Shown here: piece after piece, positions 1,896 through 57,545 of the stretch
Position numbering within the stretch: the first letter of the stretch is position 1
How the letters are laid out: the number at the start of each line of letters is the position of its first letter
IMG/VR virus record: IMGVR_UViG_3300033559_000345
Location: 1-62,962 of that record
DNA length: 62,962 bases
DNA from: a virus
Lineage: Duplodnaviria; Caudoviricetes
Direction: 5' to 3' (one strand)
Program-made: the position numbers and the translations under genes
Notes under the pieces: model-generated
What the model was told of the DNA's origin: nothing
The model's database searches: none
Seen by the model: only the letters and a program-made list of their open reading frames with translations

Positions 1896-2207
1896 TTACA
1901 TAGTTTCTGTAATAGTTGGCTTTAAGGCATTAAATGCGAGCTGCCCCATTGTCGGCAATCCAGCTGTAACAGCTGAAGGCGGCACTGGGGGAGGGGCTAT
2001 CATAACTGCTGTAGCTGCCTGAAGCTCAGAGCCACTCAATGCTAAGTTCAGAGCATAAGCTATTGCATGTGATATCGCTTCTGCAGCATCTTCAATCTTA
2101 CCCTCTGTTGCAGACGCTTGGAAATCAGCATTCGCTTTCAGAAAGGATTCTATTTTTGGCTGTATTCTTGCGCCAAGTACTGATGTGCTGAATTTTACCT
2201 GCGGCAT
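1896..2207 (-). CDS. Small putative virion protein, paralog of 2209-2511
   Basis: Collinear similarity to its neighbour: MPQVKFSTS/MPIVKMTTS, SHAIAY in both, FNALK...TETM/FNVLK...TEVM. Confidence 0.7.
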   Translation of the reverse strand: MPQVKFSTSVLGARIQPKIESFLKANADFQASATEGKIEDAAEAISHAIAYALNLALSGSELQAATAVMIAPPPVPPSAVTAGLPTMGQLAFNALKPTITETM

Positions 2208-2208
2208 T

Positions 2209-2511
2209 TTACATAACTTCCGTTGCTTGTGCTTTCAGGACATTAAAGATCAATGTTCCAACCGGGCCTCCCGCCGGTGCGCATATCCCCGCAGAAAAAG
2301 CACTTTGCATTCCGGAGCTCGCCAGTCCTTTAGCTAAACCATAGGCAATAGCATGGGATAGAACTTTTGCAGCGGTAGCAACAGGGTCGCTATCTTCAAC
2401 CCCAGCCATTGTATCAGCCTCAAGGGCTTTTGCATTATCATTAATGAAGGCTTCTATATCGGACTGAATTGAAAGGCCAATAAGAGATGTAGTCATTTTT
2501 ACAATAGGCAT
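2209..2511 (-). CDS. Small putative virion protein, paralog of 1896-2207
   Basis: Start overlaps the stop of the upstream gene at 2511; shares SHAIAY and both termini with 1896-2207. Confidence 0.7.
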   Translation of the reverse strand: MPIVKMTTSLIGLSIQSDIEAFINDNAKALEADTMAGVEDSDPVATAAKVLSHAIAYGLAKGLASSGMQSAFSAGICAPAGGPVGTLIFNVLKAQATEVM

Positions 2512-3863
2512 TATGCTATACTCCTATAAGTATCATCATCCTGAATTATTGCAACTGCAGGGCTACCCTTATCTGATGTGGTAAAACCACCAGCACTCTG
2601 TATCCCGCTATACCCAGGTGTAAACTCAGCAAGGGCTGCAGGGTTAATTGGAGCCGGGCCGCCAGGGGATGTAGTCTGACATAAAGCCGCCTGATACTTA
2701 TTCATCCAATCAAGAAACGCCTCCGTAACCACCGCCAATCCATTAACTCTGAACCCATTAACAGCTGTAACATCAATTCCGGCTGACGGATCCATTACAA
2801 TAGAGTTATTCGAATCATCATCATCACCATGGGTTAAGGTTATTTTACCAGAACCCTGAACCTTGAACTCACCATCCTTTGTGGCTGTAACGGCAAATTT
2901 ATTGAAGTTAGCGCCAGGAACAGCGCTTCCACCACCGCGGATAACCAAATCACCATCATCAGATATTAGAATTTTAAAGATGTTTCCACCTATTCCAGGT
3001 GTGGCACCACGGTCGTCGCCGGTGCTTCTTTCGTTCATGGTTACCTTGTCAACTCTGATGGTAAAGAACCCTTCACCAGCTTCTCCGGACTGAATAGTTA
3101 CACGCTTGTCATCAACATTGATAATCTTACTGAATACAACTTCACCCTTTTCATCAGGTTCAACATTTGAATTATTTGGCCCAAGATATGGATCGTAGGT
3201 ACCTTCGCATGTTGATACCCAATTTTTAAGACTCTGATTCTGTGATACAAATCTTCGATAGACAATTGGAACATTATCCGCGGCAACGCGTGATGCTTTG
3301 TCATCATCATCATTGCCAAGATTTATGCCAAAATGCTCACGAACCGGAAAGGATGGAGGGTTATTCGAAAGTATTCTATGAAAATTTTGCGCTGTATCGA
3401 TTGCTGCATTTTCATTTGCCCCATTTCCATACGGTGACTTTACTGATGATATACCATGAGTCTGCTGAGATATCTTGCCGTGCTCTGTAATTCGAATGTC
3501 AGCCATGCCTTTTGGGTGGCTGTATTTAATTTCATCTTCAAAATCATCCTCGTCAACAACTCCGCTTAATGGTGGTATCTCGAATTTACCAAGGATGACA
3601 ACCTCTGTGCTGGTAACATCACCCTCGTACGTGCCGGTATTTGGATTATAGATGAAATACATCAACACCTTAACTTTGTCACCAACTTTATAGTTTGTCG
3701 GCTCCCCGGTGTGAATCATCGTTGCCTTCATAGCTCCAGAAAACTGACCTAAAGGGGAATCTATAATAATGATGTCCCACCTTTTGCCAACCCTATCATA
3801 TGCAGAAAGCTCCGCCTCGCAGATTCTTGGAATTGGGATCGATGTTATTATTGGTATATTCAT
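2511..3863 (-). CDS. Putative baseplate central spike (gpV/gp5-like)
   Basis: OB-fold-like N-terminus (YKVGDKVKV...VVILG) and Gly/Asp-rich short beta-strand repeats at the C-terminus (ILISDDGDLVIRG, VTATKDGEFKVQG, IVMDPSAGIDV). ATG 3863 preferred over GTG 3905. Confidence 0.45.
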   Translation of the reverse strand: MNIPIITSIPIPRICEAELSAYDRVGKRWDIIIIDSPLGQFSGAMKATMIHTGEPTNYKVGDKVKVLMYFIYNPNTGTYEGDVTSTEVVILGKFEIPPLSGVVDEDDFEDEIKYSHPKGMADIRITEHGKISQQTHGISSVKSPYGNGANENAAIDTAQNFHRILSNNPPSFPVREHFGINLGNDDDDKASRVAADNVPIVYRRFVSQNQSLKNWVSTCEGTYDPYLGPNNSNVEPDEKGEVVFSKIINVDDKRVTIQSGEAGEGFFTIRVDKVTMNERSTGDDRGATPGIGGNIFKILISDDGDLVIRGGGSAVPGANFNKFAVTATKDGEFKVQGSGKITLTHGDDDDSNNSIVMDPSAGIDVTAVNGFRVNGLAVVTEAFLDWMNKYQAALCQTTSPGGPAPINPAALAEFTPGYSGIQSAGGFTTSDKGSPAVAIIQDDDTYRSIA

Positions 3864-3878
3864 GGTATAATAATTATG
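3843..3878 (+). promoter_or_regulatory. Putative phage promoter TGTTAT-N17-TATAAT (copy 1)
   Basis: TGTTAT 3843-3848, 17-nt spacer, TATAAT 3866-3871, then AATTATG; same architecture as four other copies. Confidence 0.55.
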
Positions 3879-3949
3879 TAAGAGGTTACAGTCACTTGGG
3901 CACACTTCCTACAATATACATTATTTACCATTTCAAAGAAAGGGCATAT

Positions 3950-4137: not shown

Positions 4138-7100
4138 CTATTCAACCATTCTATCCTTATTTGTTACAATAAGGTCAGGGAGCGGGTTTCCAGTATTATT
4201 CATAACATCTGTCATCCACCGCTGTGTAGTTCCCTCCATGAACACCTCTTTCAACCGGCTGTGAGCAAGGCGTCCAAGCCAGTCTTCAGACGCACCGGAT
4301 TTTCCACCTATTCCAAGAGAAACAAGCTTCGGGGTATGCTGAATAGGCTTTTTATCCTTCATATTCTTATTGAACCACTCAACAGTAGTCAGCGGAACAT
4401 TATCGCCAAAGGTAAAATTACTGTCACCAGGATCATCAATTTTGGTAGTATTAGTAATACCTCGCACAATTGTTTCAATATCACGCTTATCCAATTTCCC
4501 CTCATTGATATCTGATAACTTCTCAACAAGGAAGCGCTGTGTTTTCTTCATACCATTGAGATCGAGATATTCATGTGGATCAGGCGTCCCTTCGGAAATA
4601 ACCTCACCCTTTTTAACCTGCTGCCCTATTGTAACAATTGGCTCATTTCTATGGCCAACATAGTAAACCTCTTTAGCACCGTTATTGCTGACTGTTACAT
4701 CGTAACCTCCACCCGGCGACTTATCAATACCCTCAACAGTGCCATCCATACTGGCTAGAGTTGCCTTGTCAGGAAGCTTCTTTGTAAATCGCAATGTTCT
4801 ATCAAGAGCATCAAAGGCAGTCCCAAGGTCAAATCTTTTTTTCATCCCGGTAAAAGCACCTCCGGTATGAAATGACTTCATAGCAAGGTTCAATGATGGC
4901 TCAGTGATGGTGTGGGCTGATATCACCCCGATATTATCACCACGCTTCGGCATTTTGTGATTATTGTCCAACCCATACGAGTATGATGAAAACCCGTCTC
5001 CAGGTGTTGGGTCGGTCAAAGGTGATTGCACATTGATAGATTTTATATTGTGCTGATTAAATCTATTGACCATATCATCATTAATCAACTCATTTCGCTT
5101 TGCAACTATTTTCCCATTATCATCTCTTACATCTTTTGCAAGGAACCTGTCCTTAATAGCCTTGATATCATTTGTTTTATAATTCAGACCTTCCTCATCA
5201 AGAGGTGAATCAGATTCAATGCGAGTCTGGTACATCGATGATACAAGATCCTTTGTCATATACCCGGGGGCAAAGGACTGCACTGACTTTTTGATACTGC
5301 CACCACGAGCACCATGCGTAGATGTCCAATAGTCAGATATTGGCAAGCCTTCAGAATAAGATCTTGTTACAGGAATAGGGATCGGTCGATCTTCAGAGTC
5401 CATAAGTAGACCTGGCATAGATATAATCTGACTTGGATTATCAATATTTTTAGCCGCACCAGAATGAACTGCGATGCCAATATCATCATATTGATGTTTG
5501 CTAAGAAGTTCTTTTTTAATTTTATCCATAGTCTTGCTATATACTTCAATTACATCGCCTGTCTTAGCCTCTTTTTTAGCTTCTTTCAGATATTTGTCGC
5601 GAATATCCTTATCAACAACACTATCTGACACCCCAAAAGTAAAGCCATACCTGGAGGTGTGCTTATCACCAAGACTTCTAAGTCGATCGGCAAGATTAAG
5701 CGCATCTTTGCTACCAATACGCTTTGATGCAACGTCTCTAATCCAGCTGTTTACCCTATTAGCATTCAGCTCGACACCCCATTTCTGATCTTCCGGTACA
5801 AGGCCTTCGTTTGCTAGATGCATAATCGCCCGGTCAGTTCTACCATTAATGGTAATATTATCAGAAAGCTGAATGTCACCACGCTGGTAAGCTTTTTTCA
5901 ATTGGTCCATAGTTGATATATCAGAAACATCTTTTCCATCAACACCCTTTGAGGCAAGCCATGTTCCTGCAATAGTATCTTTGGCCGGAGCATTCAAAAC
6001 TGTATCATAACCTGTTTTTAGCATGTTTTTCGATGGAAGCCATTCGAGGGCTTCCTTTACTGCTTTTTCAGTAATTGGGGTATGAAGCTGCAAGGTATCT
6101 TGAACAATAATGCCATTAGTTGCCATGAATGTGTATGGCCCAGGCGCTGTGATATCATACATGTCAATACGCTCTGGATTCAGTTTTACTGTCTTTGCAT
6201 ATACCCATGTTATAGATTTATTCTTGACGATTTCAACCCATCTACTATCCAGGGCGTTATTTATATCGAGCCCTATTATCTTTTCAGCCGCTACACGTGT
6301 CATGTATTTGCAACCAGTCTTTTTAGAATCTGAGATTGCGTTGTATTCAGATATATTAACCTTATACTTGGCGAGTTGCAACATTGTATCAATGATACCT
6401 TTTGATACTGGGACAAGATCTTGTCTTGCAACTATTGACTGGCTATCTTTATACCCGGTAGAGCAAAATTCTTGATATGCAGATAGTTTATCCGGGTGAA
6501 TCAGTTTCAGATCTTTATCAATTACGGACGCTGTTGATATAATAACCTTATACTCAACACCTTTTCTCCCCTGGCTATACTTATAAGCCTTGAGACTTGA
6601 TTTAATACCAACAGCCCGGAGTAGCGTTACAAGCTCTTCCGCCAGTCTGATTGATATTGTTGAATACTGCATTGTAAATGTCTTTTTACCCTTTGACTCG
6701 GCTTTAGTAAATTGGCATAAGCCATCTGTATCCATTAAACCCTCTATCAAGCCAAGTTTGAACCCCTCATTGGCAGCCATATAAAAATCTGGCAGATGCT
6801 TATTTTTAGCCTTCTGACCAATCATGGTTGAGAAGTTGTGTGCAAGGTTTATGCTGGATTTTATATACTTTGTACTGTTGCAGTCAAAACCCTGGAATTC
6901 ATGTGGCGCATGTTGAACTGTACATGCAATATCTGATTCAAGTAAAGAATTTATAACACTTGAGAACTTTTCCCCTATTACTGGAATTATAGACGCAAGG
7001 CACACTGTCTTTGTTCTTGAGCTGTCTGACACCCAGCCATCTCCAATTATAGCGCCAATTAACCATCCGGTATCACGGGTTAATGGCATTTTGTCTTTAC

Positions 7101-10100
7101 ATAACATAGACCCCTGGCCACCAACATTAACTAAAGGTATTGAATTCAGGCTGCTATTAATATCTGTATTCAATACTTTTGCCATCATACGCTTATCAGA
7201 AAGATCAGAAGGGGCCACTCTCTCAAGTTCCCAAGTATCGGGATTAACAGCTATCGCACTTTGGTCTGACGATAGCACAAGTGTTTCTTTGTTATTACAT
7301 GTAACAATATAATTCTCTAAATTCTTATGAATTGAGAATTTTGTTACTGGGACCGTCAACACCTTATGTGTTTTATTATCAACTGTAATAATCTCAATTC
7401 CACTTGGTACATCGAATTCCTCATTGCCATTTTCTTTTATAACACGTGTGTGCTGCAGCCTTGGGAAATCCTCAAGATGAATATGTATAATCTTGTCACC
7501 ATCATCCATAAAAACAGGTAATTTTTCCAATGTTGGCATACTAACCTCTTTCGTTACAGTAAATGAATCAATATCGTTCTTACTGTAATATACCATATCA
7601 CCACCAAAGGAGCATGGGATTTCTGTAGAAATTTCGCAAAAAGATGATTTTTTGAGAAGTATCATAGTCGAAGTCAGCGCCGAGTCACCGTCGAAGTCAC
7701 CCCCTAGATTGCCAGCTATAATGTTTCCGCTCACATCGATTGACTTTTTATCGGTCAGAATAGGTTTGAGCGCAAGCATATTATACTTATGCAGTGACGG
7801 CGCTCTATTTGCGATAACAACCCTCTCATCAGCCACTATCTGCCTTGCCTTCCTGAAGGCTTCGCTGTCTTTCTCAACTTCTTTTTTTGCCTCAATAGGG
7901 CTATAACCCATACCAACAAGCTTCTGGATAATAAAAGGTTGGAATATTTTATTAGCCATTTCTTTTGGAAGCCCTATATGATCACTATCCATATTCGGGT
8001 CAAGTGTCACAGTAGATCTTCCAATAAGATCCTGGCGGCGCTGCATTACTTTTCTCTGGATAAAACCATACTTAGTCTGCTTATCGTCTCCATCCATCTG
8101 CCGGATGAAGCCCTTTTTATTCTTCATTTTCAACATGAAGCTTGTCGGGTCACCAAGTCCTTGAAGGGCTTTCAACTCATCGTATATCTGGCCGCGAACC
8201 CCTGCGAGTTCAATGTTGTTTACATCATCACCCATCTGTGATTCATCAAGAACCTGTTTCAATTCTGACATAGCATTTGAAGTCTGCGCGATAGACTGAT
8301 AAAGCTCGTTCTCATCCGATATTACAATTGTTTCACCGCCACCCATCTGAAACATAGGTCTATATTTAGGCGGGGTAACAGGGACTTTCGAAATAAGATA
8401 ATCTGTAGGCTTCATATTAGAATCATTTAAAGCTTTAATATAGCGCAGTGTTTTATGAGCCTTATTAAGATCAGTGGGGTTGTTTGATATCTTTACAACA
8501 CCTTCTGTTTTTGCTTTTAGCTGTTCAAGGTCAATGTTACTTAAAAGCAGCTCAACAGCCTTTCCGCCAGAAATAGCACCATGAGACCCTGGCGCTACAA
8601 TTTCACGGGTTTTCTCATCCACAAACTTCTTACCATGAATAACATCATCCAGAATCCCGCGGGATACGCCTGCAAGGGCAGCTGCTGCATTTGCTGTAAT
8701 TGGATTCAGGGTCTTTTCTGGAAGATCAATGTGAGTCCACCTGGTGCCTTGCATGCCACCGGTGCGCTCAGGATCAAACAACCCACCTTTAATTGGTTCG
8801 AAATTCTTTTTACGGTATGTCTCAGTTGGGCGTGTCAAAGCTCCAGCTGAAATTGTCTCAACATTCTTATCAGTCATAGGGTTCAGAAGGAGCTGTTTAC
8901 CATTCTGTTCCACATTTATCCCGGCACCTTTAAGGTCAGAAATCATCTTATCCCAGACATAGGCGTTTTTCAACGGTGGGGGTGTCTGGCCAGTCTCAAG
9001 AGCCCTCCACCATTCATCGTTTTTCTGACCTTTGATATCAAACATTTCACGAAGGTTGGTATACGCACCACGAGCAAGTAGTGATCCCAACTCCATGCGG
9101 CCAAGGTTTTTTCCACCCTCGACACCACCCGATGCAGCCTGCTCATAAGCATCATGTCCATCCCTGTACCTGGCGCTGAATTTATGGTCAACCTTATGCT
9201 CAAGCTTTAATATGTGCGACTTTCCAACCTGAATCTTTTTAACAATCTCTTTTCCAGTTTCAGGATCTATGAGTGTCTCTTTGTCTTCAAGCCCAAGCTC
9301 TTTCAGCTCTTCCATTATCTTTCGAGCACTGTCTTCGTCAGAAAAATTTTTAATTTTATACCGCTCACCTCTAGCTTCTGCTATTTTTCCGGCAGCATTT
9401 TCAAGTATCTGCGATGAGTTGATACGGTTCATGACACCAATCGGACTCATTGTAAGGTCAATATTCCTTCCGGTTCTTGGATTGAACGGCATCTCTGAGT
9501 CGGGGAGTATCTTTGATATGATATGCTTGTTTCCATGGAGGCCAACAATCTTATCAGCTTCCTTCATGGGCTCCTCAGTTTTAATATTCACAACAACATG
9601 GTTGCCCTTTTTCTCTACACCAGTAACAACCCCCCTGACATGCTTATCCCATACCTGAGAATTGTCACCCATATCTCTTTTTAACTGCTTGTCAAGGCGT
9701 CCTACAGCAATATCATCAGCGGTTGGCATTCTTTTCTCAAGATGAGCAACTACAACCTCACCAGGTTCAACTGTCTCACCCACCCTGATAACACCATCTG
9801 CATCCAGTTTCTTCTCATTTTTAGCCTTAAGCACCTCTGGAAAGTATGCTTTAAACTTTGCCCTGGAGAATACACCAGAGCTTGTACGCCTGTCTTTAAC
9901 ATCATACATGTGCTGAGATGTGAATTTCTTTGCAGCTGATTCTGATATTACTGCAGAATCTTCAAAGTTATACCCTTTCCAGGGGATATATGCAACATCA
10001 AGGTTAGCACCAAGCGCGTAGTGCCCACCATCTTTAGTAAAGTTATTGTCAGCAAGAACCTGCTTCTGCGTAACCTTATCCCCAACCTTAACAACGGGAT

Positions 10101-11898
10101 CGTTATGCAGGTAGGATTCACTATTCAGAGAAAAATTATTGTACAAATAGACATCATGGATTTTACCGTCATTGTCTTTTATTGTGATTTTGTCTTCTGA
10201 TATATCTTGTATCTCACCATCAACAGGTGACTTTGGGATGCCAATCATCTGCATCGTTTTGTCCTGAATGCTATTGCCTTTTTCAGAAACTATATCAAAT
10301 AATGGGACTTCACGATTCTTAAGGGATACAGCTTGCTCCTGCATTTTTGACGCTGTAAGACCACGGTTTGCCTGAATTGAATCAAGAAATGGTATCATAT
10401 TGACAGAGCTGTCAAAAACCCCCTGGGCAAACGGAAAAATATAGTCGATTTTTGACGGCTCAACCTCGACAATATCATTTTTGTAGATAGCTCTGATTTT
10501 TTTGTTTTTAGGCTTAGGTTTTTCCCCACTTTTAATAGAATACTGATCAGGGAAAGCCACATACTTATCAAACCGATCCTTTGCTGTTAATTTAACCTTA
10601 TTACCCTCCGGATCAAGGTGCATTGCAACAATATCGTTACCCTCTTTATACGCCATGCTGCTTAAATGGTTTGCTATACCAATACCGCCACCTTCCGGCG
10701 TATGCATAGGATCAATGTATCCCATTTCAGTGTTTGAAATCTGGCGCATGTGGGTGGTAATAGCCTGGCTGCTTCCAATACCACCCTCTCCAGTCAGTGT
10801 TATTTTAGTCCCTTCCCCGAGAATGGAAAGTGGATTCTGCTGAGTAGGGGGGTTTGACAGCTTTGATGTGGTAATAGTACCAGCTGTATGTGGGTTAAAG
10901 GTCTGTGGCGATATAGCTGAGCGAATATTTCTTGTTTTCTGAAGCTTATGCAGGGTGCTCGAGGCTATTTTCTTACCATTTTTGAGAAGATTATCTTTCA
11001 TTAATGTGTCAGAGTCATGAATTGACTTAAAAGCCAGGGATTCACGGTCATCCGGTGCTACGTCCCCGGTATTTATATCAATGATTTTCTTGGAAGTAAT
11101 CGCCAAAACATCAGAATTTACGTGGTCAAATGGCTTTCCAAGTGTTTCCTTGGTAACCTCCGGGTCAAGCTTTGTGGTTTTTAGGCGTTCTGTAATGATT
11201 TCTTTGACCTCATTATAACCCATGCCGGCATCTGGGCTCTTTCCAAAGAGCGCAAAATACATTGTACCCGCATCCTGCTCCGGGTTCTTGTATCTGACAT
11301 TATTAGCCTTGAAGACAGCATCCCCCCATTGGCTTTTTATTTCATCATCCGTCTTTCCAGTCATCCTCAAAGCACTTATAAGAGGGATGGTTCTGTTACC
11401 ATAGTTCACCTTGAATAACTTCGTCTCAGGATCAAAGTTTATCTTAAAGTCTCTGTTGAACCCTCGATCGAAATCAATTGTTTTATCTGCATTTATGAAA
11501 CTACTGATATCACCATTGGACTGGCGCTGGGTATAAACACCAGGCTTGAGTCTGAGCTGCTTTGTGAATTGGTATTCATTACCTTTTACAATGTATGTAT
11601 TACGATCGGTCATCTTTGGGATATCGGCGATTTTCATATTTTCTACAGAACTGACAATTTCCCCTGTGCTTTTATCAATAAGATCCATTGATGCTCTTAT
11701 TGGGATAGACCATATGCCAAGCTGCTGCTTTACCAGCTTCTGCTTTGGTATATCCTCATTAGGCATAGCGCTATCATCGGCCTCTATTTTTCTAACCCTA
11801 AGCTGAACATCATTATTTTCCATCTCTTCAAGTACCCTCTGAATAGCGGGAAGTGTAGCTTGAATATTACTTTGATTGGTTAATACAGGTGTTTGCAT
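4138..11898 (-). CDS. rpoBC: Fused DNA-directed RNA polymerase beta-beta' subunit, intein-containing
   Basis: Beta motifs: YIDPMHTPEG, IPFLDSIQANRG, GYNFEDS, DKIVGLHGNK, GGKNLGRME. These continue in frame into beta' motifs: GLFDP, PVTPPKYRP, NRAPSLH, GGDFDGD, bridge helix STHGARGG, trigger loop EPSLNLAMKSFHTGG. ATG 11898 (MQTPV) chosen as start. Confidence 0.95.
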   Translation of the reverse strand: MQTPVLTNQSNIQATLPAIQRVLEEMENNDVQLRVRKIEADDSAMPNEDIPKQKLVKQQLGIWSIPIRASMDLIDKSTGEIVSSVENMKIADIPKMTDRNTYIVKGNEYQFTKQLRLKPGVYTQRQSNGDISSFINADKTIDFDRGFNRDFKINFDPETKLFKVNYGNRTIPLISALRMTGKTDDEIKSQWGDAVFKANNVRYKNPEQDAGTMYFALFGKSPDAGMGYNEVKEIITERLKTTKLDPEVTKETLGKPFDHVNSDVLAITSKKIIDINTGDVAPDDRESLAFKSIHDSDTLMKDNLLKNGKKIASSTLHKLQKTRNIRSAISPQTFNPHTAGTITTSKLSNPPTQQNPLSILGEGTKITLTGEGGIGSSQAITTHMRQISNTEMGYIDPMHTPEGGGIGIANHLSSMAYKEGNDIVAMHLDPEGNKVKLTAKDRFDKYVAFPDQYSIKSGEKPKPKNKKIRAIYKNDIVEVEPSKIDYIFPFAQGVFDSSVNMIPFLDSIQANRGLTASKMQEQAVSLKNREVPLFDIVSEKGNSIQDKTMQMIGIPKSPVDGEIQDISEDKITIKDNDGKIHDVYLYNNFSLNSESYLHNDPVVKVGDKVTQKQVLADNNFTKDGGHYALGANLDVAYIPWKGYNFEDSAVISESAAKKFTSQHMYDVKDRRTSSGVFSRAKFKAYFPEVLKAKNEKKLDADGVIRVGETVEPGEVVVAHLEKRMPTADDIAVGRLDKQLKRDMGDNSQVWDKHVRGVVTGVEKKGNHVVVNIKTEEPMKEADKIVGLHGNKHIISKILPDSEMPFNPRTGRNIDLTMSPIGVMNRINSSQILENAAGKIAEARGERYKIKNFSDEDSARKIMEELKELGLEDKETLIDPETGKEIVKKIQVGKSHILKLEHKVDHKFSARYRDGHDAYEQAASGGVEGGKNLGRMELGSLLARGAYTNLREMFDIKGQKNDEWWRALETGQTPPPLKNAYVWDKMISDLKGAGINVEQNGKQLLLNPMTDKNVETISAGALTRPTETYRKKNFEPIKGGLFDPERTGGMQGTRWTHIDLPEKTLNPITANAAAALAGVSRGILDDVIHGKKFVDEKTREIVAPGSHGAISGGKAVELLLSNIDLEQLKAKTEGVVKISNNPTDLNKAHKTLRYIKALNDSNMKPTDYLISKVPVTPPKYRPMFQMGGGETIVISDENELYQSIAQTSNAMSELKQVLDESQMGDDVNNIELAGVRGQIYDELKALQGLGDPTSFMLKMKNKKGFIRQMDGDDKQTKYGFIQRKVMQRRQDLIGRSTVTLDPNMDSDHIGLPKEMANKIFQPFIIQKLVGMGYSPIEAKKEVEKDSEAFRKARQIVADERVVIANRAPSLHKYNMLALKPILTDKKSIDVSGNIIAGNLGGDFDGDSALTSTMILLKKSSFCEISTEIPCSFGGDMVYYSKNDIDSFTVTKEVSMPTLEKLPVFMDDGDKIIHIHLEDFPRLQHTRVIKENGNEEFDVPSGIEIITVDNKTHKVLTVPVTKFSIHKNLENYIVTCNNKETLVLSSDQSAIAVNPDTWELERVAPSDLSDKRMMAKVLNTDINSSLNSIPLVNVGGQGSMLCKDKMPLTRDTGWLIGAIIGDGWVSDSSRTKTVCLASIIPVIGEKFSSVINSLLESDIACTVQHAPHEFQGFDCNSTKYIKSSINLAHNFSTMIGQKAKNKHLPDFYMAANEGFKLGLIEGLMDTDGLCQFTKAESKGKKTFTMQYSTISIRLAEELVTLLRAVGIKSSLKAYKYSQGRKGVEYKVIISTASVIDKDLKLIHPDKLSAYQEFCSTGYKDSQSIVARQDLVPVSKGIIDTMLQLAKYKVNISEYNAISDSKKTGCKYMTRVAAEKIIGLDINNALDSRWVEIVKNKSITWVYAKTVKLNPERIDMYDITAPGPYTFMATNGIIVQDTLQLHTPITEKAVKEALEWLPSKNMLKTGYDTVLNAPAKDTIAGTWLASKGVDGKDVSDISTMDQLKKAYQRGDIQLSDNITINGRTDRAIMHLANEGLVPEDQKWGVELNANRVNSWIRDVASKRIGSKDALNLADRLRSLGDKHTSRYGFTFGVSDSVVDKDIRDKYLKEAKKEAKTGDVIEVYSKTMDKIKKELLSKHQYDDIGIAVHSGAAKNIDNPSQIISMPGLLMDSEDRPIPIPVTRSYSEGLPISDYWTSTHGARGGSIKKSVQSFAPGYMTKDLVSSMYQTRIESDSPLDEEGLNYKTNDIKAIKDRFLAKDVRDDNGKIVAKRNELINDDMVNRFNQHNIKSINVQSPLTDPTPGDGFSSYSYGLDNNHKMPKRGDNIGVISAHTITEPSLNLAMKSFHTGGAFTGMKKRFDLGTAFDALDRTLRFTKKLPDKATLASMDGTVEGIDKSPGGGYDVTVSNNGAKEVYYVGHRNEPIVTIGQQVKKGEVISEGTPDPHEYLDLNGMKKTQRFLVEKLSDINEGKLDKRDIETIVRGITNTTKIDDPGDSNFTFGDNVPLTTVEWFNKNMKDKKPIQHTPKLVSLGIGGKSGASEDWLGRLAHSRLKEVFMEGTTQRWMTDVMNNTGNPLPDLIVTNKDRMVE
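6097..7683 (-). mobile_element. Intein with LAGLIDADG homing endonuclease (529 aa) inserted directly after the catalytic DFDGD
   Basis: Removing S(7683)...VQD(6097) gives GGDFDGD-TLQLHTP, collinear with bacterial NADFDGD-QMAVHVP. LAGLIDADG blocks WLIGAIIGDG and LIEGLMDTDG; block F/G MYDITAPGPYTFMATNGIIVQD. Confidence 0.9.
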
Positions 11899-11982
11899 AT
11901 AAAGATCTTTCAATATGAGGTTACATCTTCTTATTCTACATTCTAAAATAATACTTGTGCACCACATTCAAAAGGGAGTAAA

Positions 11983-12054: not shown

Positions 12055-14997
12055 ATGAACATCGATGAGGATGAGTCCACCGATGTGGTTATGAACACAA
12101 CCGAAGAGGGGGTTCCTTATTTTAGCTCTGACGATGCCGATAAAGTTATAGCACAACACTTTCCATTTAAGGATAGTAATGGCAATCCGCTATACCGCCA
12201 GCATCAGCACGAGTCTATTAAAAAGGCTGTAACCACTAAAAAAAGATTTATCGTGATCAATGCCCCTGTGGGGTACGGTAAAACAGTTGCCGCATACACC
12301 TTTGGCAGCGCTTTCAACTCCGGAGCCTACATCACTCACCAGAAGTCACTGCAGGAGCAGATCCTGAAGGAGAAGTGGCCAGGCGTAGCCTCAATCAAGG
12401 GTGCCAATTCGTATTCATGTGTATTTGCCAATGAAACCCAGGTGATGCAAATCAACCGGGAGAAACTTGGCGAAGTCCGGTGTGGATTTGATAGTGAAAC
12501 CACACAGGTGTTGAAGTGCTCACCAAGTGGAGGGCTAACTGGCGGTGCTGATGCCGCAGCCCAACCAATACCGTCAGCGCCCGAGTATCGTGGTGAAAAC
12601 TATCTAAAAGGTAAGGTAAACGAGATTGCAGCCGACATAGCATATCACATGTCACAAGCCTGTGTTTCATATGCAAATCGTGGATTATCCTTTTCAGCGG
12701 CAACAAGCGTTGTTGGTTTTAATCAGGATATGACACAAAGCAAGATGCAGGAGTTTCTATATCAAGCATACACTGACACTATTCAAACTATGACGCAGCG
12801 GCTCATGCGGCAGGGTGACATGAAGTTTGATGATGCAGAGAAAAAGGCTATTGAATCATTTAAGTGCCCATACGCTCCGTATGAGTGTCCAAAAAAGATG
12901 GCAAAAGCCCTTATGGTTATGAGTACCATTAGAGTATTCAACCCGGATGTGTACGCTATATTTCGAAAATTCGGTATCCATGAAAGCATCACAAATAACA
13001 GAACCCTGATTATAGATGAGGCTCATTCGATCGAAGAGATTGTACAGCGTATACATGGATTTGAACTCCAGACTGACGCCTTCAATAATGTCCTCGGTGT
13101 GGATATCAGCACACTCATTAAGGGTGGTGACTATGCAATCAACCGGTTTATCCAGGTTTTTGAAGAGGATGTGTGGCCGGCGTATTTCCTGTCTTTTATA
13201 ATTAATAAGATTGGACATACCGCTGCGGCGGTACTTGCTGATTTTGCATCAAAAGACGGGCAGGAGGCAGCTGCAGCATTTATCAGAAACTCCTCTGATA
13301 GTGATAACCCTGATAAATTCCTTGCACAGTCAATCTGCAACCTGATACACTATATGGTTGCAAGATCTGATGAGAGCGCTGCAATGAAGAAGCGAATGGA
13401 ATCATTTGATCTGTTGAATGATCTGATTTTACCGTCAATCTCAAAAAACCTTGATGGCGTTGATGGATATGATGATTTCGGAGCTAAGCAGTTTATAGCT
13501 GCTAAGAAAAGCTGGATGGAAACTCCAGACCTCATAGAATCACCACTATCGCAGCAGTTTGATACGGAAGAGTTTAGAGATGTCATGCTTGCTTTGCGTG
13601 TAACATATAAAGCCGGCAGCATTCTATTTAAAAATTCTTTGAATATGTTGCGCAATAATGTGGCAGAAGAGTGGATGTATTTATTTGATAAAATGAAAAA
13701 GGTGGCACCATCTCTGTTTAAATCATCGCCATTTATATCAAACCTCAAGGATGGTACTGGCCATACACTTTTTGTTACAGCAATGATGTCAGAGGTGTAT
13801 GAGATATTGTCTCCAAATGCAATGAGCCTAAGGTTTCTATATGGAAACTTTGTAGAGTCAAGGGAAAATGGGTATGGTGTCCCATGTTTGTTTGCCTCTG
13901 AGTTTATGCGATTATCATCATCCGACTATGTTGATAAGAGTATTAGCACAGCAAAGGCGATACGAGAAAGTGAAGGTATGAATGTAATCAAGGTCGTCCC
14001 TGTGAGAATCAGCAATCTCATGGATTCGACATTTTATAGGCATGCAGACAAAATCCTTATGATGTCTGGAACATGGATTAATCGCCATGCTCTATTCAGT
14101 TTATACGGCATCCCCGAGGATGATGTAGAGTATATTGAGTTGAGTCCGATATTTGATGCGGCAAGGCGTCCTATTATTGTACTTGATCATGTCAATTATA
14201 TGAACTTCTCTCAGAAGGCATCGCTTAGTGAGAAGGAGTCTGAGTTAGACCTTGGAGCTGGGAGAAAAGCTCCGTCATACAGCTATCAAACAGCTGGTGG
14301 CATACGAAGATGGACTGCAGACTTGAAGTTCGAGATAAACACATTACGAAACCTTATAGCCACACATACAAAGGTTGAGAATGCAAATATCATACTGCAT
14401 GTTGGAACTACAATGATGCGCAATATGATAATGGAGTATATGGATAACCTTGATGAAAACTGGTTATTCCAGACACCTGCATCTATGGCGTCAAGGGTTA
14501 TGACAAACAGGCACTCTGGGATTGAATTCCCATATATCTCAAAGGATGATTTGGTTGAGATTATGAAATCAGAACCAAATACCGGGAAGACACTGGTGAC
14601 CTATTCAATGAATGAGGGTATTGACTTTAAGCATGGTGCAGCCAGGGGGCAGATCATTGTGAAGAGTCCAGCGCCAAACTTTGGAGATCCGTACATCTTT
14701 GCAAGATGCACAGGGGATGAAAGTGCAAGGATAATTCCTGATCGGGATTATTTCGAAAGAAAAATCTTAACATCCTTGACGCAGCAATACGGCCGAGTCG
14801 TACGGTCTGATGATGATTGGGGTTATACCGTGATTTTTGATCAGAAGTTGAAAATCCTGCTTAAGCAGGTGTGCCAGAAGAGTCGTATCAATATTAATAA
14901 GCGGGACGGCCTTGAATATCTCATAACAGGTATTCGAATGCGCCATATTGGCAATGTTCCACATTTCAATCAACCAAACAACGGAAGGGGGAAGTAG
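12055..14997 (+). CDS. DinG/XPD-family SF2 helicase
   Basis: Motif I APVGYGKT, II IIDEAH, III MSGT, V EGIDF, VI QQYGRVVRSDDDWG; several Cys between motifs I and II are consistent with an Fe-S domain. Confidence 0.85.
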   Translation: MNIDEDESTDVVMNTTEEGVPYFSSDDADKVIAQHFPFKDSNGNPLYRQHQHESIKKAVTTKKRFIVINAPVGYGKTVAAYTFGSAFNSGAYITHQKSLQEQILKEKWPGVASIKGANSYSCVFANETQVMQINREKLGEVRCGFDSETTQVLKCSPSGGLTGGADAAAQPIPSAPEYRGENYLKGKVNEIAADIAYHMSQACVSYANRGLSFSAATSVVGFNQDMTQSKMQEFLYQAYTDTIQTMTQRLMRQGDMKFDDAEKKAIESFKCPYAPYECPKKMAKALMVMSTIRVFNPDVYAIFRKFGIHESITNNRTLIIDEAHSIEEIVQRIHGFELQTDAFNNVLGVDISTLIKGGDYAINRFIQVFEEDVWPAYFLSFIINKIGHTAAAVLADFASKDGQEAAAAFIRNSSDSDNPDKFLAQSICNLIHYMVARSDESAAMKKRMESFDLLNDLILPSISKNLDGVDGYDDFGAKQFIAAKKSWMETPDLIESPLSQQFDTEEFRDVMLALRVTYKAGSILFKNSLNMLRNNVAEEWMYLFDKMKKVAPSLFKSSPFISNLKDGTGHTLFVTAMMSEVYEILSPNAMSLRFLYGNFVESRENGYGVPCLFASEFMRLSSSDYVDKSISTAKAIRESEGMNVIKVVPVRISNLMDSTFYRHADKILMMSGTWINRHALFSLYGIPEDDVEYIELSPIFDAARRPIIVLDHVNYMNFSQKASLSEKESELDLGAGRKAPSYSYQTAGGIRRWTADLKFEINTLRNLIATHTKVENANIILHVGTTMMRNMIMEYMDNLDENWLFQTPASMASRVMTNRHSGIEFPYISKDDLVEIMKSEPNTGKTLVTYSMNEGIDFKHGAARGQIIVKSPAPNFGDPYIFARCTGDESARIIPDRDYFERKILTSLTQQYGRVVRSDDDWGYTVIFDQKLKILLKQVCQKSRININKRDGLEYLITGIRMRHIGNVPHFNQPNNGRGK

Positions 14998-16550: not shown

Positions 16551-16594
16551 TTATGAAACGCTTCGTAAAATGTAACAGGAAGGATAGTATAAAA

Positions 16595-17284
16595 ATGATT
16601 AAGAGCCCTCACTTTCTTGATATGGTTCAGTATGATAGGTTGTGTGACGCTGTTGAAGTTATGCATAAAAACAATGTTGCCATGCCTGTTATGACAAACC
16701 ATGAAAAGCCAATACCAACTATTATTACCGCCGCACAAAAAGGTGTAGACTTCTCTTTTTCCTCTGAAGAGGCTAATAGATTAGTACTTGCTTTCCAAGG
16801 GTCTGGGGCTAATATAAAAAGATGGAAGTCTAATTTTGAGCCGGATCTTATTAAAAATCCGGAATACCACGATGGATTTGCTGATGCTGCGCTGTTATTC
16901 AAGGAATATGCGTGCAGCAAGGCTGAGGCTGCCCTTGTTAAGGGGAAAGAATTGGTGGTGGAAGGGTATTCACGCGGGGGTGGTATCGCAATCTTTATTG
17001 CCATGCATCTCTATTCTGAGTTTAAGAAATATGTCCACTTAACTACCTTCGGGTCACCGAGGGTTCTTGGTGAAGCTTATCGTGATAAGTTCAATAAAAT
17101 GAACATCCATTATGATAATGTGCGTAACCATAAAGATCCTGTCACATATGCCGGAGCTCCTATCTTTAAGAACCTTGGATACATCAAAGAGCTTCCAATT
17201 CCAGCAAAGTGGAACCTACCATGGAAAATGATTCACAGACACACTGGTTATTATGAAAATATTAAACGTCTTACAACAGTTTAA
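16595..17284 (+). CDS. Class 3 lipase-like alpha/beta hydrolase
   Basis: Nucleophile elbow GYSRG, TTFGSPRV, DPVT and a C-terminal His (HRH); LAFQGS and HDGF also fit the family. ATG 16595 has an AGGAAGGA RBS (the ORF track starts at 16553). Confidence 0.8.
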   Translation: MIKSPHFLDMVQYDRLCDAVEVMHKNNVAMPVMTNHEKPIPTIITAAQKGVDFSFSSEEANRLVLAFQGSGANIKRWKSNFEPDLIKNPEYHDGFADAALLFKEYACSKAEAALVKGKELVVEGYSRGGGIAIFIAMHLYSEFKKYVHLTTFGSPRVLGEAYRDKFNKMNIHYDNVRNHKDPVTYAGAPIFKNLGYIKELPIPAKWNLPWKMIHRHTGYYENIKRLTTV

Positions 17285-31844: not shown

Positions 31845-33512
31845 ATGAATGTTGAAATTTGGAAAGAGGCTATTAAAGAGCCTGAGTTAACCTTCACAGT
31901 GAGTGCCGATGCAAAACTTAAAGCTATGCTGAAGCACCATAAGAATGAAGTGATGTTTCTTTTACTCATCAAAGAGCGCAAGCCCCATGTTCTTGAGGTG
32001 TATGACATCCTTTACCCGAAGAATACCACTATGGATGGTGCATTCTGCAAGATTGATCATGATGATCACAGTAATAGTTTCTATAACCGGTTTGTTCAGC
32101 TGTATGGCTCTGATAGAACACTTGAGATATGGCGCGATCAAATAGGAATTGCGCATAGTCATGTCAATATGGGGGCTAGCTTCTCCGGGTATGACAATAC
32201 ATTCATTGATGACTATTTGAAGCAGTACCGGTCAAACTATTTTGTATTCTCAGTGTTTAATAAGAGTATGCAGCATACAATTCATCTGTATGATTCCGAG
32301 CAAAGGGCTAAGTTTCTTATGCCATATATCGTACAGCCATCTGAAAAAGAAATTGCAGCATGTATGAGCCGAATTGCACGGGAGTCATCTATGATACTGC
32401 AGGATATTGCAGGGGGCAGTGGTGACCTGAAGTCTGGTTATCAGCGTTTTGTAAACCTTATACAGAGTCCCGTTGATGAAAAGGTATTGTCCAGAATTGA
32501 CAAGAGCATTGAATATCTTGCTACACGCAGAATGAATGACTTGGATAACACTAAGAACGGCCATCTAGCTAGATTTCAATCTGCCTATGACGGCTATGGG
32601 TATAATGGATGTCAAAACAACTCTGAGTACACCCATGGTGGTTTATCCCGAAACATTGAGCGCGATATGTTTGATGAAGTAATATACGGCTCTAAGCAGC
32701 CGGTTAATACTAAGAAGTCAAAACCAAGCAGTTCAACCGCTGTTGTGTCAGATGAGTTTGCAGAAATTGATGTAGACTCAAATATGATTCTTGATAGTCT
32801 GGATTATATAATGGGAGTAAACTATCCTGAGCTTGTGCATGTATGGTTTAATTACGGAGCGCCAGGTGCCCAGGTGATACCCAGAATTTTCAAAAATATG
32901 CCTATTGATAATGTCAAGGCTATGGTTATACAAAGGCTAATTGACATGTCGTTCTATGATGTTGGTGATTCAGTATTTGATATTGCATCGCTAAAATCAA
33001 TATATGATAGTACCAATGAGTTTTCTGCAAATCTTGTTGCGAATAATCCTAATGCATATGTGAGCTGCGTAGTTGACGGTGAGGCTCATACTGCCGCCAA
33101 ATCTATAATCATGAAGCTTGTAGGTACAGGGATGTATGAAGAGGCTCTTGATGCTTTTATGCAAGAGTCTTATCTGGAAATGTTCGCCGACTATGTTGAT
33201 GACTGTTCTACAGATGGCGGCCTTGATAATAGTGATCTCAACTTTATCGGCACAATGTTTAAAATGTATGTCAAGGGTTTGATTCTGTGGGTGATTACAT
33301 CAGCAATATTTGATGGTCACAACCCAAAAGAATTTAACAAGTCTGTTAATAAGGTTATCAGAGACAGTAATATTGCAGATAAAAGCAATATTGTCGATCT
33401 TGTTTATGATAATAGTAGATCTGACGATCCTCAATATGGAGCTGCTTATTTTGATGGGCTGTTAAATGAAAAGCTAACAGCGTTGGATAAAACAGGTTTC
33501 TCTATACATTAA
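31845..33512 (+). CDS. JAB/MPN+ (JAMM) metallopeptidase with a long C-terminal extension
   Basis: Exact HxH-x7-S-x2-D motif HSHVNMGASFSGYD (32154-32195) with an upstream Glu (KNEV). Confidence 0.85.
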   Translation: MNVEIWKEAIKEPELTFTVSADAKLKAMLKHHKNEVMFLLLIKERKPHVLEVYDILYPKNTTMDGAFCKIDHDDHSNSFYNRFVQLYGSDRTLEIWRDQIGIAHSHVNMGASFSGYDNTFIDDYLKQYRSNYFVFSVFNKSMQHTIHLYDSEQRAKFLMPYIVQPSEKEIAACMSRIARESSMILQDIAGGSGDLKSGYQRFVNLIQSPVDEKVLSRIDKSIEYLATRRMNDLDNTKNGHLARFQSAYDGYGYNGCQNNSEYTHGGLSRNIERDMFDEVIYGSKQPVNTKKSKPSSSTAVVSDEFAEIDVDSNMILDSLDYIMGVNYPELVHVWFNYGAPGAQVIPRIFKNMPIDNVKAMVIQRLIDMSFYDVGDSVFDIASLKSIYDSTNEFSANLVANNPNAYVSCVVDGEAHTAAKSIIMKLVGTGMYEEALDAFMQESYLEMFADYVDDCSTDGGLDNSDLNFIGTMFKMYVKGLILWVITSAIFDGHNPKEFNKSVNKVIRDSNIADKSNIVDLVYDNSRSDDPQYGAAYFDGLLNEKLTALDKTGFSIH

Positions 33513-33534
33513 TAACCTTAAAGAAGGAGCTGAT

Positions 33535-34287
33535 ATGAAGATGGTGAGTAATTTCACCAGACAGATGAGTTTTGTTCCACCGGAGAAATTCGATGGAACA
33601 TGCGTATCTGTTATTGGTGTTGGAGCTGTAGGTTCCAACATTGCAATGTTACTTGCGCAGATGGGGTATGGTAGGCCAGGGTGTGGCGAACTACATCTGT
33701 ATGATTTTGACATCGTGGAAGAGCACAATCTGCCTAACCAGGCATTTTTACTCGAACACGTTGGCATGAAAAAAGTCGATGCTATGAAGGATCTTATCGA
33801 GAAGAAAATGGGCTTTTCCGTAAATGCTCACGATCGTAAGGTGACCGAGGACATGGCAGATGACCCGTCAATACGTAGATCTCACTACGTATTTATGGCT
33901 GTTGACTCAATGGCGGCTCGTAAGAGTATTCTGAAGAGCTTCCTGGAATTCAACATTACTACCAGGCTCATGATTGAGTCTCGCATGGGTGCTACTGATG
34001 GTATGGTTTTTGCCATTAACCCGCAGGACTACAATGAATGCCAGGTCTGGAGCGATAAGTGGTATACTGATGAAGAGTCAGTTGCTGGAGGGTGCGGAAC
34101 ATCAGCAAGTGTTGGTGTGACTACAACTTTCCTGGCTGCTTACAATGTCAGTACGATGATGCATCATTTCAGGGCAACTGATATACAGCACATCAATCCC
34201 ACAATCAGGAACGAGCTTCACCTTGAGCTCAATCCGTTCAATCTGATCAGCTTTGACTATAAAGCTGGATCAACAAAAACTTTTTAA
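33535..34287 (+). CDS. ThiF/MoeB/E1-family ubiquitin-like activating enzyme
   Basis: VIGVGAVGS nucleotide-binding loop, YDFDIVEEHNLPNQ, KVDA, AVDSMAAR and a candidate catalytic Cys in GGCGTS (34093-34095). Confidence 0.92.
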   Translation: MKMVSNFTRQMSFVPPEKFDGTCVSVIGVGAVGSNIAMLLAQMGYGRPGCGELHLYDFDIVEEHNLPNQAFLLEHVGMKKVDAMKDLIEKKMGFSVNAHDRKVTEDMADDPSIRRSHYVFMAVDSMAARKSILKSFLEFNITTRLMIESRMGATDGMVFAINPQDYNECQVWSDKWYTDEESVAGGCGTSASVGVTTTFLAAYNVSTMMHHFRATDIQHINPTIRNELHLELNPFNLISFDYKAGSTKTF

Positions 34288-56852: not shown

Positions 56853-57545
56853 TTACCTGGCCTCTCTAAGCATTTCTCCGAGCTTTTTTTTCATTCTGGA
56901 AACAGCCATCTCATTTGTATTCAGCTTTGCAGATATTTCTTTATTATTGAGTATTGACTTTCCACCGAAGCCAAATGTGTGCTCCATAACAACCCTCTCT
57001 TTATCAGATAGGCCACTATGGTAGATGTACTCAGCATTGGCAAGATCTTTGTTTTCAAATTGTACAGAATTACCATAAAACGGAAAGTCAGCTCCAGATG
57101 CTGTTACTTCTCCACCTATTTCTTTTTCAAGAAGTTCTAATGACTTCATAGAATACCCAAGTTCATCAGCTAACTCTGCGGCGCTTGGTTCTCTGCCGAG
57201 GTTGTCTTCAAGATTGGTGCGCACTGTCATGTATGTTGCCATTTTCATATTGCGGTGCTCAGGTATCCGTCCTGATGATATGGATTCAGTTGCCTGGCGC
57301 TGAGTTTTCCTGAGGTGGTTGTATATATGAGTAATCGGCTGAGTATTAAAATCTGGATTATACGTGTTCAGGGCGTTAATAAAATTTGACCGAGCCCTCG
57401 CTGTGAGAGTTGGTGTTGAAATTCCAGTTGTACGGTACTGATTCACAGTCTTATGTACAAGTGGTTTAAACTGCTGTGTCAACTCGAGAAAGAGTTTTGG
57501 ATCTCGAGTTTTCTGCCATTCAACAATTTTATCAGAATCATCCAT
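56853..57545 (-). CDS. Sigma70-family RNA polymerase sigma factor (FliA/SigF-like architecture)
   Basis: Region 2 FKPLVHKTVNQY...ALNTYNPD, RIPE, region 3 LGREPSAAELADELG, region 4 LSDKERVV...NKEISAKLNTNEMAVSR. Confidence 0.85.
   Translation of the reverse strand: MDDSDKIVEWQKTRDPKLFLELTQQFKPLVHKTVNQYRTTGISTPTLTARARSNFINALNTYNPDFNTQPITHIYNHLRKTQRQATESISSGRIPEHRNMKMATYMTVRTNLEDNLGREPSAAELADELGYSMKSLELLEKEIGGEVTASGADFPFYGNSVQFENKDLANAEYIYHSGLSDKERVVMEHTFGFGGKSILNNKEISAKLNTNEMAVSRMKKKLGEMLREAR

Follow-up and report, generated by a model that had tools for sequence, protein, structure and literature searches.

A single-chain, apparently zinc-free bacterial-type RNA polymerase encoded by an uncultured tailed phage

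A large, uncultured tailed phage, represented by the viral record IMGVR_UViG_3300033559_000345 (62,962 bp, CheckV completeness 35%; the whole record was analysed and is hereafter called the window), encodes a bacterial-type RNA polymerase (RNAP) whose beta and beta' subunits form one chain. The gene lies at 4138..11967 on the minus strand as one uninterrupted frame (2609 codons plus stop, no internal stop) comprising beta, the N part of beta', an intein and the C part of beta'. After removal of the intein, the chain counted from the likely start codon M24 has 1405 + 652 = 2057 residues and contains no cysteine; the N-terminal zinc-binding domain of beta' has been deleted, and the four ligands of the second zinc site have been replaced. 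With moderate confidence, we interpret the gene as encoding a self-contained, sigma-dependent RNAP that works without alpha or omega and is probably carried in the virion.

Pfam profiles recognise the beta domains Rpb2_3 and Rpb2_6 at residues 376-935 of the open reading frame (ORF), the beta' domains Rpb1_1 and Rpb1_2 at 1162-1429, and Rpb1_5 at 2207-2373. Four of these matches exceed the Pfam cut-offs (Rpb2_6, 181 bits against 23.4; Rpb1_5, 56.8 against 28.5; Rpb1_2, 49.7 against 25.3; Rpb2_3, 43.9 against 21), whereas Rpb1_1 falls under its own (31.6 against 39.7 bits). The closest solved structures are bacterial beta and beta' chains, with E values of ~1e-72 and ~1e-71. Relatives begin near M24 (11896..11898, minus strand), and the 23 codons upstream of it (11899-11967, minus strand) are probably not translated, because they are unconserved and hold three cysteines. 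Counted from M24 (coordinate 11898), the spliced chain reaches 75% of the combined size of Salmonella beta and beta' (1342 + 1407 residues) and 86% of that of the B. subtilis PDB chains (1193 + 1199 residues). These values agree with the original prediction, made from the sequence of the window, of a single ORF of about 2060 residues without the intein that is shorter than the two bacterial subunits combined.

The beta module (residues 24-1045; 8833..11898, minus strand), delimited by Pfam and by alignment to solved bacterial chains, passes directly into the N-terminal module of beta' (residues 1046-1428; 7684..8832, minus strand), which ends in the catalytic DFDGD motif according to Pfam, alignment and a structure model. 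No linker separates the two modules in the alignment to Salmonella: at the junction, AGINVEQNGK|QLLLNPMTD (8818..8850, minus strand), the beta C-terminal motif AGINVEQNGK aligns with Salmonella LGINIELEDE and is followed by beta' QLLLNPMTDKNVETIS, the counterpart of FDAIKIALASPDMIRSWS, and the first ~14 residues of bacterial beta' are missing. A stop or frameshift at this junction had been named in the original prediction as the observation that would contradict a fusion; the frame is intact, and three additional runs from two additional studies yielded low-depth contigs that match the gene at 99% or more and show neither indels nor joints, although their cover is fragmentary and none of the pieces listed bridges the junction or the ends of the intein. 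The four runs that hold at least 41% of the gene's sampled words are all labelled as microbial mat metagenomes (three studies, one possibly the source), with contigs matching at 99% or more, and no RNA dataset holding the gene is among the runs listed.

The fused layout is not peculiar to this phage but typical of a very large phage family. An exhaustive search with a 301-residue query spanning the join retrieved 1167 cluster representatives at E <= 1e-3, of which 544 pass E <= 1e-30, and the junction is spanned by all of the 150 best of these 544. Long relatives of the RNAP number 315 at E <= 1e-3, the best 120 of which were listed, and the junction is unbroken in all 123 rows of an alignment of 121 family proteins with the RNAPs of Salmonella phage Arash and Vibrio phage D69.

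The two canonical zinc sites of beta' have disappeared in different ways, as had been noted from the sequence at the outset. The first site (C70, C72, C85 and C88 in Salmonella beta' numbering) was removed outright: Salmonella beta' 68-99, 32 residues that include the four cysteines, has no counterpart at the deletion point G1074|T1075 (8743..8748, minus strand), and the 46 residues of Salmonella beta' 60-105 correspond to 14 cysteine-free residues in 122 of the 123 aligned rows, the remaining row having an intein there. At the second site, the ligands C814, C888, C895 and C898 are replaced in the alignment by P2255, D2319, S2327 and S2330 (4978..5205, minus strand), within blocks modelled at a predicted local distance difference test (pLDDT) value of 90-94. 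All four cysteines of this site are kept in 40 of the 121 family proteins, as in Arash and D69, and none of the four is present in 78 of the 118 full-length members.

Loss of the second site is distributed over a clade of 75 proteins that includes the window RNAP (support 1.0) and a separate clade of three among the keepers of the site. Both a FastTree tree of 121 tips, from which P0025, P0075 and P0078 were dropped as truncated, and an IQ-TREE quick tree of 35 chosen rows, with the zinc-site columns removed, recover two separate cysteine-free clades (75 tips, support 1.0; three tips, support 100) whose branches force two changes, and the replacement residues differ between them (P-D-S-S versus P-S-Y-S). 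However, an approximately unbiased (AU) test does not reject a single cysteine-free clade (log-likelihood difference 19.85, p = 0.24), and the loss is therefore reported as having occurred once, probably twice.

The total absence of cysteine, a feature that the original prediction had not raised, extends beyond the zinc ligands. All ten cysteines encoded downstream of M24 lie in the intein. The 41 other ORFs of the window contain 166 cysteines in 17,499 residues (0.95%), a frequency at which the chance of finding none in 2057 residues is ~3e-9; at the lower frequency of the virion-side block (0.58%) the chance is ~6e-6, and the replication block has 1.40%. The core columns of the alignment are free of cysteine in 74 of 121 family members, and most of the members that retain the second zinc site have exactly those four, which means that cysteines have been purged from this RNAP family down to the zinc ligands. 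In the clade of the window RNAP, these last ligands have been lost as well. Judged from the residues at both sites, the enzyme would contain no bound zinc.

The reduction has spared the catalytic machinery. Beta keeps the active-site motif HGNK and, by alignment, the conserved lysine pair (ADKIVGLHGNKHIISK), and the catalytic residues, the clamp helices and the flap tip are all retained, while the rifampicin-pocket positions D516, H526 and S531 are T, E and T. The clamp helices of beta' (residues 1218-1269; 8161..8316, minus strand) are, by alignment and a complex model, the predicted docking site of sigma region 2. The C-terminal module of beta' (residues 1958-2609; 4141..6096, minus strand), assigned by Pfam, alignment and model, contains the bridge helix, a trigger loop without the SI3 insert, and the former second zinc site. 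No counterpart exists for the Salmonella lineage-specific inserts at beta ~230-419 (in pieces) and 934-1037 and at beta' ~962-1184, nor, near the C-termini, for beta 1130-1160 and 1181-1206 or beta' 1290-1306, 1348-1375 and 1394-1407. Conversely, the only segments of 12 or more residues without a Salmonella counterpart are the first 15 residues of the ORF (before M24), the intein and one 17-residue stretch. As neither the lineage inserts nor the zinc-binding domain is present and the beta' C-terminus is incomplete, "minimal", the word first applied to this enzyme, is a fair description. Structure modelling, which had been proposed as a check, was performed for two parts of the chain. The AlphaFold model of residues 860-1428 has a mean pLDDT of 86.1, with blocks of 94 over the junction and over the zinc-domain deletion point, and the model of the beta' C part (pLDDT 83.3) has as its best PDB match T. 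thermophilus beta' (5x21_D, E = 1.2e-37, template modelling score 0.71), indicating that the C-terminal fold is kept in the model, which says nothing about metal content.

The active site of this RNAP is interrupted by an intein of 529 residues (S1429..D1957, with a Q-D end and Thr at +1; 6097..7683, minus strand), delimited by alignment to the closest intein-less relative, P0002. That protein (2067 residues) is 65% identical over 2063 aligned columns, and the 529-residue insertion is the sole large difference. The insertion lies directly after the catalytic Asp triad D1424-F-D1426-G-D1428 (7684..7698, minus strand, by alignment), between the third catalytic Asp and a Thr, in the arrangement GGDFDGD (1422-1428) | S1429 ... 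IIVQ-D1957 | TLQLHTPIT, such that GGDFDGD and TLQLH become contiguous only once the intein is removed. The nucleophiles S1429 at the N-terminus and T1958 at +1 are present, and a LAGLIDADG homing-endonuclease domain is recognised at residues 1736-1815 (6523..6762, minus strand; PF14528 LAGLIDADG_3, 36.8 bits against a cut-off of 22.5). Inserts at the same DFDGD|T site occur in 45 of the 121 relatives, and the 28 full inteins found there share a C/S start and a (Q/F)-D end before Thr, so that the intein of the window is of a conserved atypical type and not a decaying one. Inteins ending in Asp can splice. Since the insertion splits the active site and the complete relatives have a single RNAP each, splicing must presumably occur. 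An intein-less form of the DNA would be visible as a joint; none was present in the contigs of the four runs, whose cover is fragmentary and includes no listed piece bridging the intein ends.

Several further inserts were observed in the family. Thirteen inteins of a more distant clade (P0079-P0119) occupy the same DFDGD|T site, but begin with E, Q or M, thus lacking an N-terminal nucleophile, and end in S-N, which suggests a splicing class different from the C/S...Q-D type of the window. Inserts of at least 100 residues are found in 49 of the 121 proteins at five recurrent sites (window RNAP residues ~425, 643, 1074, 1429 and 2363 in the family alignment), and one protein has three. P0118 has a 462-residue insert exactly at the zinc-binding-domain deletion point.

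The phage also appears to encode its own specificity subunit, which adds to the original prediction. A sigma-70-family factor of 230 residues, likewise devoid of cysteine, is encoded at 56853..57545 on the minus strand, as recognised by phrog_351 (sigma factor; E = 3.7e-12), by a family profile and by homology to Arash gp10 (E = 2.3e-14). The profile, built from 26 relatives, matches PDB sigma factors over positions 7-230, covering regions 2-4 (best E = 2e-14); as a single sequence, the ORF scores 21.4 bits with Pfam Sigma70_r3, under the cut-off of 25.3. A model of the complex of this protein with the RNAP scores 0.75, and the best of three controls scores 0.00; the mark for such scores is reached by 116 of 157 solved complexes and by 2 of 215 mismatched pairs. 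The runs agree in at least 53% of contacts, the pLDDT of the partner is at least 68, and the modelled interface brings beta' 1224-1264 in the clamp helices together with sigma 14-60 in region 2. Because sigma/beta' complexes have already been solved, the model shows likeness and not binding; together with the sequence matches, it makes the 230-residue protein the probable specificity subunit of the window RNAP. An identical sigma protein is on record on two contigs, the longest of 116,982 bp, so a longer assembly of the same or a near-identical phage exists.

Alpha and omega, in comparison, were not detected. The statement that no alpha is seen in the window was confirmed, with no Pfam match to alpha or omega; as the window represents 35% of the genome, this absence alone says little. 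In line with the proposal to search the rest of the genome, three complete relatives were searched, namely Arash, D69 and G001, a genome of 186,450 bp with terminal repeats whose RNAP is 55% identical: profiles for alpha (PF01000, PF01193) and omega (PF01192) matched none of the three and all 14 control genomes. Each of the three relatives has one beta, hence a single RNAP, and in the alignment to Salmonella no extra domain of the window RNAP stands in for alpha. A solved precedent is the non-virion RNAP (nvRNAP) of phage AR9, a bacterial-type enzyme described as lacking alpha, omega and any compensating domain (PMC9209446). From the sequence of the window and the analogy with these phages, we infer that the RNAP is independent of host alpha. 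The earlier proposal of a possibly alpha-independent enzyme is thus strengthened by the three relatives and by AR9, but this support is indirect, and the enzyme may still use host alpha.

The suggestion that the RNAP travels in the virion comes from a cultured relative and is likewise new with respect to the original prediction. In purified Arash particles, the protein with the highest number of spectra was gp206 (beta plus the N part of beta'), and gp216 and the sigma factor gp10 were present as well (PMC10585845). The plus strand of the window carries phage replication genes and the minus strand tail/baseplate genes, with the sigma gene inside the tail/baseplate block. By analogy with Arash, the RNAP of the window is probably packaged in the virion.

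In the mechanism that we propose, the gene would supply the phage's own transcription enzyme, a bacterial-type two-barrel RNAP with beta and beta' in one chain. Splicing of the intein would join DFDGD to TLQLH and thereby create the active site, and the resulting core would need neither an alpha dimer nor omega, the covalent link between beta and beta' replacing the assembly role of alpha. Promoters would be recognised by the 230-residue sigma-70-type factor docked on the beta' clamp helices. As in Arash, RNAP and sigma would be packed together in the virion and would transcribe from entry onward, independently of the host RNAP, from which it follows under this proposal that phage transcription on entry would be insensitive to rifampicin. 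The loss of the zinc sites and of all cysteines would suit a protein that has to withstand conditions outside the cell and regain its fold unaided by cofactors or partners.

Several points weigh against this interpretation. Because the search for alpha and omega used only Pfam profiles, an assembly subunit that is very divergent or unrelated may have gone undetected, or host alpha may be used, and the window covers about a third of the genome (35%). Zinc could in principle be bound through His, Asp or Glu, and the spliced RNAP has 41 His. The intein ends in Gln-Asp instead of the canonical His-Asn, and its Pfam Intein_splicing match reaches 17.5 bits, under the cut-off of 35.8. If M1 were the start codon, the protein would gain 23 unconserved residues and contain three cysteines. 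As for packaging, the Arash RNAP is only ~30% identical, consists of two chains and keeps the second zinc site, and the authors of that work allow for contamination of particle preparations by abundant infection-time proteins (PMC10585845).

Among the alternatives, a hybrid enzyme deserves the closest consideration, although we regard it as unlikely. In such an enzyme, the fused chain would assemble on the host alpha dimer, perhaps with omega, and the phage would replace only the catalytic subunits and add a sigma factor; the absence of an alpha gene from the phage genomes is equally a prediction of this arrangement, and beta and beta' regions that are bacterial-type throughout are consistent with it. 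However, solved jumbo-phage RNAPs work without alpha or omega (PMC9209446), and the C-terminal segments listed above for both beta and beta' are missing, which may or may not affect the contact surfaces for alpha and omega. In addition, the hosts of the family are very different (Salmonella, Vibrio and microbial-mat organisms), which makes dependence on the alpha of one host awkward, and an RNAP carried in the virion would have to work before it could assemble with host parts.

It is improbable that residues other than cysteine, or a partner protein, still hold zinc in place, which would make the enzyme cysteine-free but not metal-free. The abundance of His would allow it, and the examination covered the two canonical sites only; on the other side, the four residues now at the second site (P, D, S and S) form no zinc site, the first site is deleted outright, and the sigma factor also lacks cysteine. 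A dead or crippled gene, in which the intein splices poorly or not at all or the ORF represents a copy in decay or an error of assembly, would accord with the non-canonical C-terminus and the sub-threshold splicing domain of the intein but is very improbable given a 2609-codon frame without a stop, the start and end pattern shared with the 28 full inteins of relatives, flanks 65% identical to intein-less P0002, independent contigs matching without indels, and a single RNAP in each complete relative.

If the self-contained, virion-carried RNAP is accepted, its peculiarities might share one cause. It is possible, though doubtful, that the fusion into one chain and the absence of alpha, omega, zinc sites and cysteines form a single adaptation to packaging and delivery, whereby the capsid would hold the RNAP until it passed, unfolded and together with the DNA, through the tail and had to refold on its own in the host. 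Such a protein would depend on neither partner subunits nor a fresh supply of metal and would expose no thiols to oxidation outside the cell, and the loss of the last four cysteines at the second zinc site would have been selected, maybe twice in the family. Were this true, the enzyme would be the smallest self-sufficient cellular-type RNAP core known and a natural test of the need for zinc and alpha in catalysis.

In cellular RNAPs, the two zinc sites of beta' and the alpha-dimer platform are near-universal and important for folding and assembly. The window RNAP represents a natural, strongly conserved case without zinc sites, apparently without the alpha platform, and without cysteine, in a chain of 2057 residues that can still be aligned well to bacterial beta and beta'. 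If active with the 230-residue sigma alone, it would be a handy minimal system in which to study the mechanics of transcription, would give synthetic biology a polymerase encoded by one gene and programmed by sigma, and would help to show which parts of the cellular enzyme can be dispensed with. [quoted passage not shown]

Downstream of the RNAP gene, a 464-residue gene (2511..3905, minus strand) is baseplate hub/spike-like as an Atlas lead only, and is syntenic in G001; neither it nor the 301-residue neighbour of the RNAP gene has a match in GenBank phages. Beyond the hub-like gene lie two adjacent paralogous ORFs of ~100 residues (1896-2511, minus strand), a pair conserved in G001, for which Atlas gave no usable family lead (all scores below 0.9 for the 100-residue ORF). 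Divergent from the RNAP gene, across a gap of 87 bp, a DEAD_2/Helicase_C_2-type helicase of 980 residues is encoded at 12055-14997 on the plus strand, a neighbour that G001 lacks within 10 kb of its own RNAP gene. Elsewhere on the plus strand, a Class 3 lipase domain (Pfam E = 1.2e-12; PHROG esterase/lipase) is encoded among the replication genes at 16553-17284, and 31845-34287 contains a 555-residue ORF with a weak JAB-like match (E = 8e-4, under the cut-off) followed by a ThiF/E1-like ORF (E = 5.8e-21), which could constitute a phage ubiquitin-like conjugation or deconjugation pair.

Among cellular enzymes, rpoBC fusions in Helicobacter and Wolbachia likewise place beta before beta' in one chain, but these enzymes are of full size, retain both zinc sites and function together with alpha and omega. 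The closest likeness among cultured phages is to Arash gp206 and gp216 and their homologues in Vibrio phages D69, D148 and D181, which share the direct beta-to-beta' junction and the deleted zinc-binding domain; Arash and D69 also share a homologous sigma (gp10 in Arash), one RNAP per genome and the lack of any match to alpha or omega, and the genomes of Arash and its Vibrio relatives measure roughly 180-187 kb. However, Arash-type RNAPs are only ~29-30% identical to the window RNAP and consist of two chains, with beta' cut after its catalytic part (1525 + 606 residues from genes 4.7 kb apart in Arash; 1527 + 609 residues in D69), whereas the window RNAP is one chain; Arash also keeps the second zinc site with all four cysteines, which the window RNAP lacks. 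In the part of the Arash report available, the genes are annotated as beta and beta', and fusion, zinc sites and enzyme activity are not described (PMC10585845).

At a broader level, the window phage resembles mReC, the lineage of multisubunit-RNAP-encoding Caudovirales described by Weinheimer and Aylward in 2020, which comprises uncultured large tailed phages with bacterial-type beta and beta' branching apart from cellular homologues (PMC7481178). The two most likely belong to the same broad lineage, although the contig number of G001 is not present in the mReC supplements, and the main text of that paper contains none of the words zinc, alpha, sigma or intein and uses fused or fusion for crAssphage only (PMC7481178). 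The nvRNAPs of AR9 and phiKZ (PMC9209446; PMC7598289) are comparable in being bacterial-type two-barrel enzymes with a phage-encoded specificity subunit and without alpha, omega or a compensating domain, but they consist of four or five chains, use a non-sigma factor and are far more divergent; the word zinc is absent from the main text of both the AR9 paper (PMC9209446) and the review (PMC7598289).

In the proposed mode of delivery, the window RNAP would resemble the virion RNAP of N4, gp66 of crAss-like phages and the tape-measure-fused RNAP of P23-45 (PMC10770324), each a large single chain delivered with the DNA for early transcription, the function proposed here. The N4 enzyme is T7-like, and the crAss-like and P23-45 enzymes are extremely divergent two-barrel polymerases with no recognisable beta/beta' Pfam domains and no sigma; the window RNAP, unlike the crAss-like and P23-45 enzymes, is readily alignable to bacterial beta and beta'. 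A key-term text search of PMC7481178, PMC7598289, PMC7824862, PMC13282480 and PMC11835377 found no description of the form seen in the window, and no description of the fusion, of zinc loss or of cysteine loss in such phages was found in the literature searched, which excluded subscription papers. Multisubunit RNAPs of phages are already known, and the fused chain without zinc sites or cysteines appears to be new.

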